DNA from: an uncultured Hyphomicrobiales bacterium
GTDB taxonomy: Bacteria; Bacteroidota; Ignavibacteria; Kapaibacteriales; UBA2268
NCBI GenBank assembly: GCA_964513465.1
Contig: CAZEMR010000005.1
Span: forward strand, 14,948 to 78,947
DNA: 64,000 nt
Reading direction: 5' to 3'
The notes under the pieces are model-generated. The model saw nothing but the letters and a program-made list of their open reading frames with translations, was not told the origin of the DNA and ran no database searches. Of this stretch, positions 2,660 through 48,810 are shown one piece after another (position 1 is the first letter of the stretch; each line of letters opens with the position of its first letter). Made by a program: the position numbers and the translations under genes.

Positions 2660-3367
2660 ATGCAAAACCGCAGACAATTTCTTACCGCAGCCGGCGCTAT
2701 GGCGGTCGCTACCGCTGCCTCGGGTGCATTCCCGGAGCCGGCTTCCGCACAGGACAAATCAGGCGGCTACGCCAACCACAAGCTCCCGCCGCTCCCTTAT
2801 GACTACAATGCGCTGGAGCCCGTCATCGACGAAACAACGCTCAGAACCCACCACGATATCCACCACCAGGGATACGTCAACGGCCTGAACAACGCCGAAG
2901 AGCAGCTTGCTATCGCACGAGTCAAAGGCGACTTTTCGATGGTCGATTACTGGTCGCAAAAATCCGCATTCCACGGCGGCGGCCACACTTTGCACTCGCT
3001 ATACTGGAAGTCAATGTCGCCCGATGGCGGAGGAATGCCAACCGGCAAAATTGCAGAGGCCATTTCGAAAAGCTTCGGCACATTCGACAAATTCAAACAG
3101 CAATTCTCCGCAGCGGCCAAATCCGTCGAGGGCAGCGGCTGGGCCATACTCGCGGCGCGCCCCGGAGACGACACTCTGCTCGTATTCCAGGTGGAAAACC
3201 ACCAGAAGCAGATTCCCCCGAATATAATGCCAATCATGGCAATCGACGTCTGGGAGCACGCCTACTATTTGAAATATATGAACAAACGCGGCGACTACGT
3301 CGACAAATGGTGGGACATCGCCAACTGGGAGCAGGCCGAGCAGTGCATGATGCGCCACAAAAAATAA
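2660..3367 (+). CDS. Fe/Mn superoxide dismutase with twin-arginine (Tat) signal peptide
   Basis: Tat motif RRQFLTAAGAMAVATAASG...ASAQ. SOD metal-binding motifs HHDIHHQGYVNGLN and DVWEHAYYLKY. Confidence 0.9.
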   Translation: MQNRRQFLTAAGAMAVATAASGAFPEPASAQDKSGGYANHKLPPLPYDYNALEPVIDETTLRTHHDIHHQGYVNGLNNAEEQLAIARVKGDFSMVDYWSQKSAFHGGGHTLHSLYWKSMSPDGGGMPTGKIAEAISKSFGTFDKFKQQFSAAAKSVEGSGWAILAARPGDDTLLVFQVENHQKQIPPNIMPIMAIDVWEHAYYLKYMNKRGDYVDKWWDIANWEQAEQCMMRHKK

Positions 3368-3424
3368 TCCGATTAACGCACAATCAAAAGGGGCAGCCGA
3401 ATCATCCGGCCGCCCCTTTTTAAA
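3312..3424. repeat. Direct repeat copy 1 (113 bp): native 3' end of sod plus its terminator
   Basis: Identical to 4848-4960 by direct comparison of the two stretches. Confidence 0.9.
3386..3424 (+). terminator. Rho-independent terminator of sod (GC hairpin plus T-run); part of direct repeat copy 1
   Basis: aaaaGGGGCAGCCGaatcatcCGGCCGCCCCttttt. Confidence 0.7.
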
Positions 3425-3443
3425 ATGACATTAATTCATATAA

Positions 3444-4748
3444 CTAATTTGTTTGAAGGTGGCCTTCTTTTTTCAATAATGAGATAGTTTCATTATATTC
3501 TTTTGCCTCAGCAATTTTTGTGAATTCAATTTTAGAACCATTGTGATTTGCAATTTGTTCAATTTCATTAAGAGTAACTCGGAAAAATTCTTTTCTAATA
3601 TTGATCCGGTTAACTCTCATTCTATCAAATGCTTTATGTAATTTATTTTCCAATTCCGGGGCATTATCAGAATAAATCATGGCATGAACATCGAAAGGGA
3701 AAGGTACAGATGCGTCGCCTAGTTCTTTAACTCTATCTAACGGATCAAGTCGGCGAGTCATACCAATTTTATATACATCTTTTCCGAAGGAGCCAATATT
3801 TGAAATAATATAAACATGACCGGATTTTGTAAGTTCTGCCTGTGAAATAGCTCTTTGGTTTTTCTCTTCGGCTTCTTTTAATTTTTCTTCAAGTTCAGTC
3901 ATTTTTTGCTGTATAGAGCTAATCTCTTCATCGGAAGCAATTTCCATTTCTTTTCTGGCTTGCTCAAGAGCCCGTATATACTGCTGTTCTTCCATTTGGG
4001 CTTCTTTTAATGCTTTTTCAATTTCTTGCTTCCGTCTGGCTTCTTCTTTCATCATTTCGCGAATTTCTCTTTGTTCTTCACGTTCTTCTTCCTTTTTCTC
4101 ATGATATTCATGAACAAGTTTTAGCTCTTCGATTTTTAAATTCAGGTAATCTACCGTAATATCACTATTTATACGAGTGGCAAGTTTATTAATTATTTCG
4201 AAATTTTTATTAATTCTTTCAATCATTTTAGTAATATTTTTATAGTTGACCTGGGAAGTGGCAGCGTCACATTCACCATTAAATGCCCTTAGCATTAATT
4301 TAAGATTTTCATTCGCCATTTTTTTGCCCTCGGCTTTGCTGCCGCCTAATGTCCATTCCGAATGGCACACCACTGCGGTCTTGTTCCTGATCATTGATTT
4401 TTGCTTTTCTCTTATTTCACTGATTTTTGATTTATATAATTCAGAATTTTCGAAGTTATATTCCGGTTCGTAATATCCGAATTCTATTGCTTCTTCATCT
4501 TCCTTAAAAATCGCGACGAGTTTTTTTAGATGTTCTCGTTCAGCTTCGAGAGCTTTGATTTCTTCTAAAAGAACTCTTTTTTTGGCGTTTATTTCTTCGT
4601 ATTCTTTTTCCGTATCTTCAATTTTTTGGTAGGGCTCAAAACGTTTTTTTAAGGTGTTTTTCTCTTTCAGTAGAGTAAATAAATATATCAGCACACAGAT
4701 TAAGACTAATAATAAAAATAATACCATATCGAGACTCCTATAAAACAA
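3444..4748 (-). CDS. Membrane-anchored DUF4041 coiled-coil protein with C-terminal T5orf172 / GIY-YIG-like nuclease domain (SNIPE-like candidate anti-phage nuclease)
   Basis: N-terminal TM helix (MVLFLLLVLICVLIYLFTLL). About 250 aa of E/K-rich coiled coil. C-terminal GHVYIISNIGSFGKDVYKIGMTRRLDPLDRVKELG...LHKAFDRMRVNRINIRKEFFRVTLNEIEQI, matching the T5orf172 (GIY-YIG-like) pattern. Strongly AT-rich codon usage unlike the neighbouring genes. Confidence 0.8.
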   Translation of the reverse strand: MFYRSLDMVLFLLLVLICVLIYLFTLLKEKNTLKKRFEPYQKIEDTEKEYEEINAKKRVLLEEIKALEAEREHLKKLVAIFKEDEEAIEFGYYEPEYNFENSELYKSKISEIREKQKSMIRNKTAVVCHSEWTLGGSKAEGKKMANENLKLMLRAFNGECDAATSQVNYKNITKMIERINKNFEIINKLATRINSDITVDYLNLKIEELKLVHEYHEKKEEEREEQREIREMMKEEARRKQEIEKALKEAQMEEQQYIRALEQARKEMEIASDEEISSIQQKMTELEEKLKEAEEKNQRAISQAELTKSGHVYIISNIGSFGKDVYKIGMTRRLDPLDRVKELGDASVPFPFDVHAMIYSDNAPELENKLHKAFDRMRVNRINIRKEFFRVTLNEIEQIANHNGSKIEFTKIAEAKEYNETISLLKKEGHLQTN

Positions 4749-4847
4749 ATAATTATGATATCATAAACTAATAATATTTTTTTATTTTTACTAAAAATTT
4801 CTTATTTCGCAAGATAATAAAGAGAATTTTGTATTAATTTGCGTAAG

Positions 4848-4960
4848 GGGACATCGCCAACTGGGAGCAGGCCGAGCAGTGCATGATGCGCCACAAAAAA
4901 TAATCCGATTAACGCACAATCAAAAGGGGCAGCCGAATCATCCGGCCGCCCCTTTTTAAA
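4848..4960. repeat. Direct repeat copy 2 (113 bp): duplicated sod 3' fragment (last 17 codons) plus terminator, now abutting the 3' end of the minus-strand OMP gene
   Basis: Exact copy of 3312-3424. The sod fragment here has no upstream coding sequence. Confidence 0.9.
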
Positions 4961-4979: not shown

Positions 4980-5642
4980 CTAGAAGTAAATGCCGAGGGT
5001 CAGGGTGTAGTATGCCTTGGCTTCCTCGTCGCTTTCCTTGCCAATCAGATTGGCCTGATTGTATTTGCCCTCGAGATTGATCGTCAGAAGGCCGAGATCG
5101 AGGTCGGCGCCTGCGCCGAGTCCGAACCCAACGCGGTTATCCGTCGGCGAACTCGACAGCGGAATCGGAATGCCCTCGGATTCGTAATCCACCGAGGATG
5201 TTATATAATTATATGTCAGATCGCCGGTGGCGTAAACCCCGATGAAACTGCGCAAAAGATAGAAATTAATACCAGCGCCGATCGGGATAATATTCTGCGA
5301 CGATTTGAGAGTTGTCAGCACTTCGCCGGTTTCGGGATCAGTGACGTAGATATCGGTCTGCGGGAATTTGTTCCATGCGATACTTCCGACGAAAAGGACG
5401 TTGTCGGTCAGGCTCACACGGGCTTTCATTCCGATATGGTAGCCGGCTTTTGTGCCGTCTCGAACGAAATTGCGGGCAGAGTCGTTGTCTTCGAATCTGT
5501 CGCGGTTGTAAATATCATTGACCTGATCATTGGGTGTCGATAGTCCGAGGTGGAATCCGATATCGACCTGGGCATGAAGCCCGAATGCGGGAGCAAGCAT
5601 AAATGCTGCTGCAATGAGGAAAAATTTGATTGATTTGTACAT
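4980..5642 (-). CDS. Outer-membrane beta-barrel protein (OmpA-like/porin-family barrel, OMP_b-brl type)
   Basis: Signal peptide MYKSIKFFLIAAAFMLAPAFGLHAQ. Alternating amphipathic strands. C-terminal aromatic residue (…LGIYF). Confidence 0.7.
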   Translation of the reverse strand: MYKSIKFFLIAAAFMLAPAFGLHAQVDIGFHLGLSTPNDQVNDIYNRDRFEDNDSARNFVRDGTKAGYHIGMKARVSLTDNVLFVGSIAWNKFPQTDIYVTDPETGEVLTTLKSSQNIIPIGAGINFYLLRSFIGVYATGDLTYNYITSSVDYESEGIPIPLSSSPTDNRVGFGLGAGADLDLGLLTINLEGKYNQANLIGKESDEEAKAYYTLTLGIYF

Positions 5643-5803
5643 AAGGTCTCCAAAAATTTATAAACAAAAATAGGTTTCCGGAGAGAAAAGTAAAAAAAAT
5701 TATAAATGAGGCCGGAATTGATGCGTCAATATCTCAAATGCAAATTAATGAAATAATTGTTATCTTGCGAAAAAGAAATTTCAGCATCTATAAATATATA
5801 GGA

Positions 5804-7750
5804 ATGGCAATGAGGAAAATTATTTTAATCGCAGCATCACTGCTTTTGATCGCAAGCATGCTTTTAGCCCAGGAAAACGAGAGCCGAACAAGGCTGGGCG
5901 CATTTCTCGGCGGGAATTTTAATATGCACAGCCCCACGATGGAATATGATTATTCGCTCACAGGCGGCGGCAATTCGATATTCGATTTCGATCAGAACTC
6001 CACCAGTCTCGGCATTAACGGCGGGCTGATCGGCATTTTTCCGCTGAACCGCATACTCTCGATTTCGGGCCGTATCGGCTACCACGGCATGGGCGCCACG
6101 CTCGAAGGCCGCCAGGCGGGAATCGTTAATCCCGACGCCAACGAGATGGACGTCTCGCTTCATTATCTCGAAATTTCGCCTATTCTGCATTTTCATAATC
6201 TTATCCCCACAGAGGGCCTGTATTTCCTTGCCGGAATTGAAGTCGGAGTGCCGATTGTGGCCAATTACAACTGGCCTGTGGTATATGACGACGGCACCGG
6301 CGCCGCAACGCTCGAAACCATCGACTCTGATATCCCCGACAAAAGCGTCCGAGTGGCGTTTGCCCTCGGCGCGGGGTATGATATTCAATTAAGCAAAGAC
6401 ATGTTCCTGACGCCCGAGGTGTCCTTCCGGCTGCCGATGACCAATGTGTCGGCCAATGATAATTTTATGACATGGAACGTGCCGCAGCTCCGGCTTGGCG
6501 TTAATCTGACATTCTCCCTCGGCGGCGACGAAGAGGCAGCCGAATACGAAGATCATTTCCTCGAAGTCGGATTCGAAGACGTCCGCTATTACGACCAGAC
6601 GGGCGCTCCGCGCAAATTGGACAAAATCACGGTCGAGGAAGTCCAATACACCGAGATGTTTCCGATTGTGCCCTATGTATTCTGCGCAGAAAATCAGGCG
6701 AAGCCCGCACCTGCCACCCAGGATCTGGCCGCAGGCAGCGAAGCAGGCGAATTCACGATGAACAGCCTCAAACCCGACGCTCTCTCGATCAACCGCTCCA
6801 CGCTCGATATAATCGGCCGCAGGATGCAGGAAAACGAGCGCTACCAGGTGACCATCACCGGCACCCGCGACAGCAAAGCCGAACAGGGCAAGGAAGACCT
6901 TTCGTCGAACAGAGCGGAATTTGCAAAAAAATATCTTGTAGATAATTATAATATTATGCCCGGACGAATCACAACCAAAAGCCGCGGCCTGCCCGAAAAG
7001 GCATCCTCGACCCGCGTGCCCGACGGAGTCGCCGAAAACCGCCGGATCGAATTCACCAGCCCCAGCGGCGACCTTCTGAAGCCGATCACAATCGAGCGCG
7101 ACAAGCAGACAGTCGCCGAGCCGCGCATGATCGAATTCATCCCGTACACCGTCACCACCGACTTGGTCACAAGATGGCAGCTCGAAATAGTCCAGGCCGA
7201 CAAAACGATCCAGGACTACCGCGGCGCCGGATTCCCCGATACTCTGCAGTGGCTGATCATGCCCAACCAGCTTCAGCCCAGCCAGATACCGCTGGATTAT
7301 ATATTCACCGCCGAGACCGATTACGGAATGAAGGAAATGGCCACCGGCTCGATCCCGGTAGAATACTACTCGATTACACGCAAGAAAACCGAAGACCGCC
7401 CGGACAAAACGATATCGAAATTCAGCCTCATCGTGTTTGATTTCGACAGCCCGGAAGTATCCGCAAAGGATCGCGAAATTATTAACGACAACGTAATTCC
7501 CGCGATTAAATATAATTCAACGGTGCAGATATACGGATATACCGACCGCATCGGCGAGGATGAATACAACAAACGCCTTGCGAAATCGCGCGCCGAAAAC
7601 GTACGCAAAATACTCGAGAAAAGCGCCCCCACCGCGCAGTTCGAGGTCTATGGCGTTGGCGAGAACATCCTGCTCTACAACAACGAACTGCCCACCGGGC
7701 GCCACCTGTCGCGCACGGTGCAGATATACGTAATCACCCCAAAGGAATAG
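5804..7750 (+). CDS. OmpA family outer-membrane protein (N-terminal beta-barrel, central domain, C-terminal OmpA peptidoglycan-binding domain)
   Basis: Probable start MAMRKIILIAASLLLIASMLLAQ (ORF track Met at 5738 lies upstream). C-terminal OmpA_C signature (…NKRLAKSRAENVRKILEK…RHLSRTVQIYV). The TDRIGEDEYN segment aligns to the OmpA_C consensus region that usually reads GHTD. Confidence 0.75.
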   Translation: MAMRKIILIAASLLLIASMLLAQENESRTRLGAFLGGNFNMHSPTMEYDYSLTGGGNSIFDFDQNSTSLGINGGLIGIFPLNRILSISGRIGYHGMGATLEGRQAGIVNPDANEMDVSLHYLEISPILHFHNLIPTEGLYFLAGIEVGVPIVANYNWPVVYDDGTGAATLETIDSDIPDKSVRVAFALGAGYDIQLSKDMFLTPEVSFRLPMTNVSANDNFMTWNVPQLRLGVNLTFSLGGDEEAAEYEDHFLEVGFEDVRYYDQTGAPRKLDKITVEEVQYTEMFPIVPYVFCAENQAKPAPATQDLAAGSEAGEFTMNSLKPDALSINRSTLDIIGRRMQENERYQVTITGTRDSKAEQGKEDLSSNRAEFAKKYLVDNYNIMPGRITTKSRGLPEKASSTRVPDGVAENRRIEFTSPSGDLLKPITIERDKQTVAEPRMIEFIPYTVTTDLVTRWQLEIVQADKTIQDYRGAGFPDTLQWLIMPNQLQPSQIPLDYIFTAETDYGMKEMATGSIPVEYYSITRKKTEDRPDKTISKFSLIVFDFDSPEVSAKDREIINDNVIPAIKYNSTVQIYGYTDRIGEDEYNKRLAKSRAENVRKILEKSAPTAQFEVYGVGENILLYNNELPTGRHLSRTVQIYVITPKE

Positions 7751-8860: not shown

Positions 8861-9415
8861 TTATTTGCCCTTATTGGGCTGATCCATCTGCTGGAGCTGC
8901 TGCAATTCTTTGATTTGCATTATTTCCGAGAGCTTCGAAATCTTGTCGAGCGACATCGCGCCGCTGATATTGACCAGAGTGGCTTCGTTTTCCTCGCCGA
9001 CCAGCACGAGTAACTCCTTGATTTCCTTTTGTGTTTGTTTGGCAAGTATCCTCACATTCGAGCCTTCGTCGTTGACCAGCACGAGGCTTTTGTATTCGCT
9101 CATCGGAACTTTCGAAAGGAAATCCTTATAAACTTCGCGGGCAAGACTTTTCTCGCGCTTCAGCTCTTTGTCGAATTTATAAGTCAATACGAGCATTGCG
9201 TTGATTCCGCTGAGCATTTCGTTGACTGCGCCATTTGTGCTGTCGCTCTTCATCATTTCGCCCATAGTTTCGAACATTTCCTTATTGATCAGTACGGTTG
9301 TGAAGCCCTTTTTGCCGGTGTATTTGTCGAACAGGCTGATATAGGGCGAGTCCTGTGCCAGTGCGGTTGCGGCAGTCATGACAACTGCCAGTGCGATTAC
9401 GATTATCTTTTTCAT
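8861..9415 (-). CDS. DUF4252-like secreted protein (the third gene of an ECF-sigma module, Bacteroidetes style)
   Basis: Signal peptide MKKIIVIALAVVMTAATALAQ. Pattern ...FDKY..KKGFTTVLINKEMFE...LVLT...DKISKLSEIM is typical of DUF4252. Position is immediately downstream of the anti-sigma gene. Confidence 0.5.
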   Translation of the reverse strand: MKKIIVIALAVVMTAATALAQDSPYISLFDKYTGKKGFTTVLINKEMFETMGEMMKSDSTNGAVNEMLSGINAMLVLTYKFDKELKREKSLAREVYKDFLSKVPMSEYKSLVLVNDEGSNVRILAKQTQKEIKELLVLVGEENEATLVNISGAMSLDKISKLSEIMQIKELQQLQQMDQPNKGK

Positions 9416-23572: not shown

Positions 23573-23703
23573 TCCGGCAAAATATCTATATATGGGGTGG
23601 CTGCGAACCGGCCATCCTTTTTTTGGGAATGTAATATATATTTCTTGATGAGTTCAGTTGGATTCTATTTAAGAGTATACATTATTATTCAATAATAAAA
23701 AAA

Positions 23704-24429
23704 TCAAATTAATAATACCCAGAAAATATTCGAAATAATATTAATAAGAATCGAAATTAATATAGTAAACAAAATTGAAGCAAGAGGATACTTTTTGATA
23801 AACAGTTCGAACTTTAGAAGTCTTGGCTTTCTTATTTTCTTAAGCTCCCTTTCTAATTTATGGATATATTTTTCTGGTAGAGCTTTCATTCCAAAAAAAG
23901 CCTTACAAGAATCGCAAATTACAGGATTTTCAGTATTATATATAACATCGTATTTATAGCCATTCATGTCAAATAAACATCCCCGTGTATCTCTATGTAC
24001 AATACTGTAAACATCATCATTTGATATATCTTTAAGTGCCATTTTGATTAAGATTATTTCATAGATATTCTTTAATATAAAGTTTTCTATAGAAATATTA
24101 TTGATAAATAGTAAATGATCAATATCCGCTATAGACAGGCAAGCACAATTTTGTCCGGTTCTATGCAGATAGAAATTATCATCGAAACGATAATTCATAA
24201 TACCTAAAACAATATCAGAATATTTAATATTCTTCATGATATCCTCAGTCTCATCTCTTGAATAAACGATATCATATGTACCATAATCATTCGTTGGCCT
24301 GGGAAGATTATCAAGTGTTTCGATCTGATCGATTATAAACAATTTTGATTTGAATTTCTTAAGTTTTTTTAAATCAAGTTCATGCCGCAGATTTCCCAGA
24401 ATGACTATTTTAATTTTTGTTATTGACAT
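23704..24429 (-). CDS. AT-rich orphan hypothetical protein with C-terminal TM anchor (likely horizontally acquired)
   Basis: Codon usage is visibly far more AT-rich than the flanking genes. Soluble N-domain with Cys pairs (…GQNCAC…, …CDSCKAFF). C-terminal hydrophobic helix YPLASILFTILISILINIISNIFWVLLI. Confidence 0.55.
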   Translation of the reverse strand: MSITKIKIVILGNLRHELDLKKLKKFKSKLFIIDQIETLDNLPRPTNDYGTYDIVYSRDETEDIMKNIKYSDIVLGIMNYRFDDNFYLHRTGQNCACLSIADIDHLLFINNISIENFILKNIYEIILIKMALKDISNDDVYSIVHRDTRGCLFDMNGYKYDVIYNTENPVICDSCKAFFGMKALPEKYIHKLERELKKIRKPRLLKFELFIKKYPLASILFTILISILINIISNIFWVLLI

Positions 24430-24888
24430 TCCTTCCTCCTGTTAAGCTGTTTACGACTGATAATATGATTTTCGGTTAAAAATATTTTGGAATTAACTGG
24501 TAAAGATGATATTTAAATAAGATACGAAATATTATAAAAATATATTCGATAAATATTGAAATCTTGCTTTATTACAAAATATTAGAAATATGTGGTTTTA
24601 AAATTAGAAATGTCTTGCAAAGATTGCATGGACTGAGTGCTTGATTATTTCAATTACAGAAATTTCATGAAAAACTGGCGAACTTCCCGCCGGCACTCAC
24701 GAATTCCGCTGGAACTCCGCGGCCATAGCCCCCGGCGCATATAATTGCGTGATAACAGGCAGGGGAGATGTCAGCGCAGAAAGAATCATCATCACGAGGT
24801 GAGCCGATGCCCGCGTGAAATATTATCCGAAAAAATTCGTTTCTTAATAACTTATCGGATATGATTTCAAACGCTGACTTATATATTT

Positions 24889-48063: not shown

Positions 48064-48810
48064 TTATTTTTCTCCCCAGTAATATTTAAAATTCAGGCTG
48101 TGATTCAGGTAATCGAATTCGGGTTCGTCGAAATAATTCAGGAATCTGAATGAGTATCCGACCGATAGGAAGGGATCGTCCTTATCGAAAATATAATTCA
48201 TTTCGTAATAAAGATTATTGAAAAGATTTAAGCTCCCAGCGCGGAAATTAGAGTGCAGATCGGATATTATATCGCCAGTGCGCAGTGAAAAAATATACTC
48301 CGGCTTTTCCTTGTCGGGACGCGATACAAGCCCCAGTATCGAATTCGAGGGCTTTATTTCGATTTCGTCGTTGCGATAGGGGATATAAGCCCTTAGCTCC
48401 GGCGAAACCGAATACGAAGTAATCCAGAAATCATGGCCCATCTGCAGATCAGGATACAAAGACAACTGATAATATGCTTCGAAATTTGCGCCGGCATAGG
48501 TTGTGATATTATCCATCCAATCAGTCTTCCAGCCGTAAAATACTTTTATCGGAGTCAGCGCCAGATTGAGCCCGATAATGTCCTTGCCATGATTAAATCC
48601 GCCGCGAAGCCACGACTCAATCTCGAATTTATTATTGCCGCAGATTTCCGAATACGCGTAGCCCAGGCTGACTTCATAGCCGCTGAAAATTATTCCATGA
48701 TTGAATGCATCCTTATTCTGATGCCAGTCGAAATTGAGCATAACCTTGTTTTCCGCTCTGATCTGACTTGCAATCAGTAAAAAAAACAGCACAAAAATGA
48801 TTTTTTTCAT
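48064..48810 (-). CDS. Hypothetical secreted/outer-membrane protein
   Basis: Signal peptide MKKIIFVLFFLLIASQIRA. Tyr/Phe-rich alternating segments. No domain recognised. Confidence 0.45.
   Translation of the reverse strand: MKKIIFVLFFLLIASQIRAENKVMLNFDWHQNKDAFNHGIIFSGYEVSLGYAYSEICGNNKFEIESWLRGGFNHGKDIIGLNLALTPIKVFYGWKTDWMDNITTYAGANFEAYYQLSLYPDLQMGHDFWITSYSVSPELRAYIPYRNDEIEIKPSNSILGLVSRPDKEKPEYIFSLRTGDIISDLHSNFRAGSLNLFNNLYYEMNYIFDKDDPFLSVGYSFRFLNYFDEPEFDYLNHSLNFKYYWGEK

Follow-up and report, generated by a model that had tools for sequence, protein, structure and literature searches.

The anti-phage system PD-lambda-1 was discovered through a functional screen of the Escherichia coli pangenome (2022, PMC9519451) and was renamed SNIPE by Saxton et al. 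(Nature 2026, PMC13190303), who define it by a transmembrane (TM) segment, a DUF4041 domain and a nuclease domain of the GIY-YIG type. We describe here a SNIPE homologue encoded by a single gene in an AT-rich insert of 1,423 bp, at positions 3425-4847 of a 64,000-nt stretch of a Candidatus Kapaibacterium genome (GenBank assembly GCA_964513465.1, contig CAZEMR010000005.1, positions 14,948 to 78,947; this whole stretch is called the window below). In E. coli, SNIPE is a single-pass inner-membrane protein with DUF4041 and GIY-YIG facing the cytoplasm, and it cleaves lambda DNA during injection (PMC13190303). Its DUF4041 domain binds DNA and contacts the tape measure protein, the E414A substitution or deletion of DUF4041 abolishes defence, and the protein without its TM domain is a toxic nuclease that cuts the chromosome (PMC13190303). 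The association with the entry proteins ManYZ and the phage tape measure protein is host- and phage-specific in E. coli (PMC13190303). Within the family, sequence and length vary most in the N-terminal region, and variants of the W257R and E223K type are common and alter phage range (PMC13190303). Defence by members of the family has been tested experimentally in E. coli (PMC13190303, PMC9519451) and in Streptococcus thermophilus (PMC12322248).

The window gene is a member of this already-described, widespread and experimentally characterised family, and the reading that we favour, with a probability of roughly 0.8, is that the cassette is a horizontally acquired single gene for a SNIPE-family anti-phage nuclease. 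The protein matched the PD-Lambda-1 profile of PADLOC (PDLC03976, E=2e-166) over residues 38-428, aligned to positions 85-476 of the 491 in the profile, and it matched PHROG 1847 with E=8.6e-155. As a SNIPE reference we used PhiR26_1, an E. coli phage gene annotated as PD-lambda-1 and found by tblastn of phage genomes. Its product carries E414, W257, E223, I308 and N250 all at the positions given in the SNIPE paper and therefore shares the numbering of the characterised protein. BLASTP aligned the window protein to it with 57% identity over the C-terminal 355 aa (E=8e-137), and the catalytic E414 aligned with E360 of the window protein, an offset of 54. In an alignment of 33 diverse homologues, E360 and the Tyr, Arg, His and Asn positions of the GIY-YIG core were invariant, all of them kept in the window protein, and R147, K159, R171 and K181 of DUF4041 were nearly so. 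Apart from one identical deposit, the nearest other SNIPE homologue shares 58% identity with the window protein, and viral relatives reach at most 49%.

The first-pass annotation of this DNA, made from the letters alone, had linked the combination of a TM helix, DUF4041 and GIY-YIG with SNIPE, and the domain searches bore this out. In Pfam, DUF4041 (PF13250) matched residues 150-205 (here and for the next two matches in 434-aa numbering) with E=3.1e-20 and 72.3 bits against a cut-off of 27, covering 56/56 profile positions; absence of this match, or of one to T5orf172, had been named as grounds for dropping the idea. The C-terminal domain, described in that annotation as T5orf172/GIY-YIG-like, matched MUG113 at 326-401 (E=5.5e-20) and T5orf172 at 310-401 (E=1.1e-16), both above their cut-offs. 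The predicted N-terminal TM helix also stood up: residues 2-20 reach a Kyte-Doolittle-19 hydropathy of 3.26, form the sole strongly hydrophobic segment of the protein, are helical in the AlphaFold2 (AF2) model and are followed by KEKNTLKKR. The protein is, as had been noted, rich in Glu (16%) and Lys (12%). In the AF2 model (predicted local distance difference test score 80.7), residues 2-82 form a helix, 95-190 make up the DUF4041 module, 192-301 form further helices and 303-402 fold into an alpha/beta domain, and this modelled architecture agrees with the published SNIPE description of a TM-to-stalk helix, DUF4041, a helical linker and a C-terminal alpha/beta domain. As the insert holds a single gene, flanked by a superoxide dismutase gene (sod) and an outer-membrane protein (OMP) gene, the system is a stand-alone one. 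Profile, domains, catalytic Glu, anchor and architecture all agree, so that every defining feature of SNIPE that could be tested is present. Sequence searches of the PDB returned nothing relevant for the window protein, and NCBIfam gave solely sub-threshold SMC-like coiled-coil noise.

The comparison with described proteins shows where the window protein follows them and where it departs. Like E. coli SNIPE, it is the product of a single gene, with basic residues after its N-terminal TM helix, then a helical stalk and DUF4041, and the GIY-YIG domain at the C terminus; an N-terminal membrane anchor is found in about two thirds of SNIPE homologues, including the characterised one. Unlike E. coli SNIPE, it has one residue before the TM helix and thus essentially no periplasmic tail, it carries Lys at the W257 position and Ile at the E223 position, and its host is a Kapaibacterium (Bacteroidota-related) and not an enterobacterium. 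Whereas the PhiR26_1 copy lies in a prophage, the window gene is chromosomal and stands between housekeeping genes. The S. thermophilus PD-Lambda-1 (PMC12322248) has the same family call and is likewise a single gene, whose chromosomal locus is filled or empty depending on the strain; it protects against siphoviruses, and its host is Gram-positive, unlike that of the window gene. With respect to the GIY-YIG proteins Slx1, UvrC (N-terminal domain), I-TevI and R.Eco29kI, the window protein has no sequence-level match to any PDB chain, and its GIY-YIG domain is fused to a membrane anchor and DUF4041 and not to their partners or DNA-binding domains.

Some SNIPE homologues carry an N-terminal TPR region that replaces or joins the short anchor. 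One of them, encoded at 5575..7299 of an Ignavibacteriaceae locus described below (L046), is 574 aa long with TPR_12 at residues 44-112, and another (P0078) is listed with several TPR families. They illustrate the N-terminal diversification reported in the SNIPE paper (PMC13190303).

From this analysis we infer membrane localisation, nuclease activity, anti-phage function and expression for the window gene. By homology to E. coli SNIPE, the helical stalk and DUF4041 would attach to DNA and probably also to the tape-measure complex of a siphovirus during injection, after which the GIY-YIG nuclease at the C terminus would cleave the incoming phage genome, and membrane tethering would hold the nuclease off the host chromosome. 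Several observations weigh against this reading. The window protein is about 54 aa shorter than E. coli SNIPE in the membrane-proximal helix between the TM segment and DUF4041, the first 84 positions of the PADLOC profile find no match in it, and the part of the nuclease domain at aa 326-344 is modelled with low confidence. A sigma-70 scan and a search for the Bacteroidota-type TAnnTTTG motif found no promoter consensus in 4728-4847, the region upstream of the gene. Finally, two S. thermophilus homologues that are 98.5% identical gave wholly different protection (PMC12322248), so homology is not a guarantee of function or of target range. The N-terminal shortening lies within the known variation, since this region of SNIPE varies in sequence and length.

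The open reading frame (ORF) on the minus strand at 3444..4748 gives 434 aa when counted from a TTG, the length adopted in the first-pass annotation. The ORF itself stands, and the length probably does not: an ATG at 4727 yields 427 aa, with an AGGAG at 4735-4739 placed 7 nt upstream, and MFP4528004.1 (NCBI, 'DUF4041 domain-containing protein [Candidatus Kapaibacterium sp.]', 427 aa) is 100% identical to the window protein. Because of the ideal 7-nt spacing and the identical deposit, 427 aa is most likely the true product. The upstream region called the gene's own AT-rich promoter region is indeed AT-rich (120 nt, GC 0.19); its status as a promoter did not find support in the two consensus searches. 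The features of the locus are as follows, with GC3 standing for the GC content at third codon positions.

2660..3367, plus strand: sod, an intact host gene for an Fe/Mn superoxide dismutase with a Tat-type signal (Pfam Sod_Fe_N and Sod_Fe_C on an identical protein; GC3 0.70); repeat copy 1 takes in its last 56 nt
3312..3424, no strand: direct repeat copy 1, 113 nt, made of the 56-nt end of the sod coding sequence and 57 nt downstream with the terminator hairpin; 100% identical to 4848-4960
3386..3420, no strand: bidirectional intrinsic-terminator-like hairpin (RNA folding), with a U-run past the stem either way, which would serve sod (plus) and the SNIPE gene (minus)
3425..4847, minus strand: foreign cassette of 1,423 bp, in which the SNIPE gene lies between 19 nt and an AT-rich upstream stretch of 120 nt (composition; missing at the corresponding site of two related contigs, L005 and L006)
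3444..4727, minus strand: coding sequence of the SNIPE/PD-lambda-1 homologue, 427 aa plus stop (PADLOC, PHROG, PhiR26_1 alignment)
3546..3821, minus strand: GIY-YIG nuclease domain (T5orf172/MUG113), aa 303-394 (Pfam)
3648..3650, minus strand: codon of E360, aligned to the catalytic E414 of E. coli SNIPE (pairwise alignment)
4134..4301, minus strand: DUF4041 domain, aa 143-198 in 427-aa numbering (Pfam PF13250)
4668..4724, minus strand: predicted transmembrane anchor at the N terminus (VLFLLLVLICVLIYLFTLL, aa 2-20), with a basic stretch after it (hydropathy, AF2 helix)
4728..4847, minus strand: AT-rich upstream region, presumed promoter region (composition only)
4735..4739, minus strand: Shine-Dalgarno sequence AGGAG
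4848..4960, no strand: direct repeat copy 2, in which an orphan piece of the sod 3' end (56 nt) is joined to the second hairpin copy, which now terminates the OMP gene (repeat match; folding, -30.6 kcal/mol on the minus strand)
4980..5642, minus strand: host OMP beta-barrel gene, convergent with sod (Pfam OMP_b-brl; a 76%-identical orthologue adjoins sod in L005)

The base composition of the cassette sets it apart from the rest of the window. The GC content is 0.318 against 0.491 for the window as a whole, and the SNIPE gene has a GC3 of 0.276 against 0.58-0.70 in sod, the OMP gene and the genes for an OmpA-like protein, RluB and SNF. Across 76 homologous loci the median difference in GC between gene and flanks was -0.044, and the -0.171 of the window lies in the extreme tail, which argues that the AT-richness is not merely an effect of a Glu/Lys-rich sequence. 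In the closest sampled relative, represented by the two metagenome contigs L005 and L006 (OMP protein 76% identical, DNA about 70% identical), the stop codons of the convergent sod and OMP genes lie 48 nt apart, the spacer contains a terminator hairpin, and the SNIPE insert is missing. Among OMP relatives at 57% identity or less, sod is no longer a neighbour. On the sod side, the neighbouring genes encode an SNF-family transporter, a pseudouridine synthase (RluB), a hypothetical protein and the Tat-signal Fe/Mn superoxide dismutase; on the OMP side they encode the OMP beta-barrel, OmpA-like, Rieske, DUF4252, histidine kinase, HDOD, sigma factor and ParA/SRP54-type proteins. The ORFs inspected over roughly the first 20 kb of the window included no integrase, transposase or other defence gene (PADLOC was run on a few of these neighbours only), and the SNIPE gene thus lies outside any defence island. 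The first-pass annotation had seen here a block much more AT-rich than its flanks and a recently acquired, self-contained cassette dropped into a housekeeping intergenic site; it had proposed checking whether sod directly adjoins the OMP gene in relatives, and had allowed that the same gene with host-like GC in all relatives would speak against it. The foreign GC3, the empty site in the relative and the housekeeping neighbourhood all fall on the side of that proposal. The Candidatus Kapaibacterium lineage would accordingly be the recipient in a horizontal acquisition from a much more AT-rich donor, with the short spacer where sod and the OMP gene converge as the probable landing site; a perfect duplication of 113 bp, covering the sod 3' end and the putative bidirectional terminator, would have been either left behind or made use of by the insertion.

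This perfect 113-base duplication of the end of a neighbouring gene and its terminator is the sole unusual trait of the insert. The copies at 3312-3424 and 4848-4960 bracket the 1,423 bp exactly: the interval assigned to the cassette by the first-pass annotation is precisely the span between them, and the repeat itself was not remarked there. It is the sole direct repeat of at least 35 nt in the 64-kb window, its ends are abrupt with no residual similarity beyond them, and its composition is host-like. Folding energies of the hairpin are -22.3 kcal/mol (plus strand, z -4.7) and -30.1 kcal/mol (minus strand, z -5.5); a U-run follows the stem whichever way it is read, and from its sequence the hairpin looks like a bidirectional terminator. 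A terminator scanner missed the duplicated hairpin because of an internal mismatch, and RNA folding found it. Lacking a terminator of its own, the SNIPE gene stops 19 nt short of the copy 1 hairpin, and the OMP gene uses the hairpin of copy 2; the duplication therefore leaves the sod reading frame intact and provides a terminator for each of the three genes.

A second assembly, GCA_046542925.1, has the same repeat-bracketed structure with 3 single-nucleotide differences in 6 kb. The Logan k-mer assembly (k=31) of SRR11308339 breaks at the repeat: the contig with sod stops at its last base (3424), and the contig with the OMP gene stops 30 nt (k-1) inside it (4931), which is the pattern expected for a repeat or a fork. 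We count both observations as evidence for the structure. The proteins of sod and the OMP gene are encoded without any difference on these short contigs (L002 and L004). In Logan, no SNIPE protein is recorded, the protein cluster having an NCBI member only. The sample may contain a mixture of filled and empty alleles, may carry a different insert or may simply have low coverage.

The wider family was surveyed with 80 genomic and 22 viral loci carrying SNIPE homologues, scanned for direct repeats bracketing the gene. In a loose first survey, flanking repeats were seen at 6/77 SNIPE loci against 4/201 random positions. With tight brackets and real long ORFs of the same loci as controls the counts were 2/66 and 5/164, and a more sensitive search gave 2/83 SNIPE loci against 5/187 control genes (p=1). 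The first enrichment vanished under tight controls, and we reject flanking repeats as a property of the SNIPE family. A repeat in one locus (L068) was also discarded as an insertion bracket, as it consists of the 3' ends of two paralogous genes. A close analogue nevertheless occurs in an Ignavibacteriaceae metagenome-assembled genome (MAG; CAVUCF010000028.1, locus L046): there, a single SNIPE gene is bracketed by a duplicated NUDIX gene 3' end. The duplication is 143 nt long and 81% identical, has a near-perfect core of 62 nt and terminates exactly at the stop codon. The adjoining DUF1254/DUF1214 gene is bracketed by a duplicated terminator hairpin (7471-7515 and 9281-9324; 45 nt, 93% identical), so that two neighbouring single genes each have their own flanking duplication. 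From its sequence this locus looks like a classical integration of an element supplying a substitute 3' end; the repeat of the window differs from it in being perfectly identical, with abrupt ends and no diverged arms.

Repeated elements were also seen near SNIPE homologues in four further genomes. In a Leptospiraceae MAG (JANYCR010000430.1, L015), a palindromic element of about 110 nt containing GACTTTTAAACTC...GAGTTTAAAAGTC occurs at 119-228, 1875-1952 and 2890-2998; it recurs between consecutive genes, of which the SNIPE homologue is the first, in a layout resembling a cassette array with attC-like or REP-like (repetitive extragenic palindromic) spacers. In a Bacteroidetes MAG (L047; 3615-3675, 5185-5301, 8334-8454 and 10235-10355) and an Opitutaceae MAG (L053; 8123-8280 and 9956-10113), consecutive genes near the SNIPE homologue are set apart by repeated intergenic elements of 45-158 nt. 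In a GC-rich Sericytochromatia MAG (L035), a perfect repeat of 27 nt (52 nt at 85%) brackets the homologue at 5080-5131 and 7264-7315, with copy 1 inside a 367-aa ORF.

The repeat-bracketed structure of the window could in principle be an assembly artefact, for instance an empty chromosome and a separate molecule sharing the 113-nt segment. An integrated form and an empty site plus a circle do yield identical de Bruijn graphs, and both the break of the Logan contigs at the repeat and the missing Logan copy of the SNIPE protein would agree with this. It is nevertheless very unlikely, as the integrated form is present in two separately deposited contigs (80,853 nt and 20,974 nt) that differ by the 3 substitutions given above, usual reads and the largest k of metagenome assemblers exceed 113 nt, and a circle of 1.5 kb would be without a replication function. 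We regard the repeat as real. Of what lies between its copies, the first-pass annotation had left room for a selfish nuclease. T5orf172/GIY-YIG domains are known in phage homing endonucleases, and homologues of the window gene are frequent on mobile DNA (41 phage and 203 plasmid records), both of which would suit a selfish or homing cassette; a decaying or inactive remnant would be in line with the unequal activity of the close S. thermophilus pair (PMC12322248). However, the full-length SNIPE architecture includes a TM anchor, which homing endonucleases lack, Pfam shows only DUF4041 and the nuclease domain with no sequence-specific DNA-binding module of the homing type, and the survey gave no family insertion signature (2/83 against 5/187). 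The ORF is uninterrupted and keeps every invariant residue of the family, the catalytic Glu among them, as well as a strong Shine-Dalgarno sequence, and 1.4 kb between perfect 113-bp repeats should be readily deleted unless the insertion is recent or selected; an inactive relic is therefore not suggested. We consider a selfish cassette or a remnant very unlikely, and a SNIPE-family defence gene remains the reading that we prefer.

As to the recombination mechanism by which such a gene may have arrived, three models fit the sequence: a Campbell-type crossover, an att-flanked element moved in trans, and a duplication by repair or template switching. We tentatively put forward as possible a Campbell-type insertion-duplication, in which a small circle with the SNIPE gene and a 113-bp host-identical segment would have entered by one crossover at the sod 3' region; the resulting unit of 1,536 bp could excise through recombination between the repeats and re-enter sibling cells, which would be compatible with SNIPE function. 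The perfect repeat with its host-like composition and abrupt ends fits such an event, as does the fork of the SRR11308339 k-mer assembly exactly at the right end of the repeat, and no recombinase is encoded in the insert or among the nearby ORFs examined. The initial joining of the foreign gene to a host fragment is, however, left without explanation by this model, and no circular junction or same-strain empty allele was found: exact-pattern scans of Joint Genome Institute (JGI) metagenomes and viral contigs for the terminator and sod 3' end returned no empty allele, circle junction or attP-like sequence. Alternatively, the repeats could be the attL and attR of a minimal non-autonomous integrative element, similar to a cis-mobilizable element (CIME), that brings a replacement gene 3' end and depends on a tyrosine or serine recombinase encoded elsewhere. 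Phage 21 and e14 at icd, and CIME-type elements, are known for element-borne duplications of gene 3' ends at their integration sites. The window resembles them in that the insert stands between direct repeats that overlap the target gene's 3' end and keep this gene intact, and the NUDIX 3'-end duplication of L046, the diverged-arm version of this arrangement, is a classic signature of an element-borne substitute 3' end. In contrast to these elements, the window insert measures 1.4 kb and holds one gene, no integrase is encoded in it or among the examined ORFs within about 15 kb, and the repeat is 100% identical including the terminator, whereas 113 nt of perfect identity without diverged arms is atypical for att sites. 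In addition, neither the sod 3' end nor the terminator is present on any viral contig and bracketing repeats are not enriched at SNIPE genes, and we find an att-flanked element doubtful. A search for recurrent use of the sod 3' end led nowhere because the sod relatives are too distant (at most 55% identity in metagenomes and 60% in the protein database). The duplication could also have been born during the insertion itself, by repair of a staggered break or by a replication template switch near the terminator hairpin, with a stalled fork, copying of foreign DNA and a return 113 nt upstream. The perfectly identical copies with abrupt ends and a repeat boundary directly after a very stable hairpin (-22 and -30 kcal/mol) are consistent with this origin, and the DUF1254/DUF1214 gene of L046 is likewise bracketed by a duplicated terminator hairpin. 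Clear microhomology at the junctions is lacking, though, and sequence alone does not separate this model from the Campbell-type one; we regard it as unlikely. Finally, an integron gene cassette was rejected, as the flanking repeat is host sequence and no integrase was found among the examined neighbours (no dedicated attC model was run).

Two further stretches of low GC were observed in the window. The first is an AT-rich island at 23620-24640 (GC about 0.335) with a single ORF on the minus strand at 23704..24429, encoding an orphan protein of 241 aa with a C-terminal hydrophobic helix and a strong Shine-Dalgarno sequence of the AGGAGG type. It sits between an AmmeMemoRadiSam-type gene and a CCA-adding/HD-domain gene, and may be another horizontally acquired single gene; no Pfam or PADLOC match and no flanking direct repeat were found for it. 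The second stretch, at 48064..48810 on the minus strand (GC 0.386), encodes a protein of 248 aa whose N terminus resembles a signal sequence; it adjoins a TetR-like gene and gave no Pfam or PADLOC match.

As a gene, the window homologue adds little: SNIPE/PD-lambda-1 is already mechanistically characterised and reported in about a third of well-sequenced clades, and PADLOC, a standard tool, calls it automatically. The locus is of interest as a clean, minimal case of the gain of a defence gene outside a defence island, with exact boundaries, a strongly foreign composition and a relative in which the site is empty. It also extends the family to the poorly studied Kapaibacteria lineage, and the shortened membrane-proximal region could inform what a minimal functional SNIPE requires. 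The perfect repeat of a gene 3' end and terminator raises the question of how single-gene defence cassettes enter and leave chromosomes without a recombinase of their own. That the duplication marks an undescribed form of mobility of single defence genes, in which mini-cassettes lacking a recombinase would enter gene ends or terminators by insertion-duplication and pop out via the repeats, is hinted at by the NUDIX 3'-end duplication and the duplicated terminator of the Ignavibacteriaceae MAG, and we judge it rather improbable. If it were true, Ignavibacteria and Kapaibacteria would gain and lose immunity genes reversibly and independently of islands.

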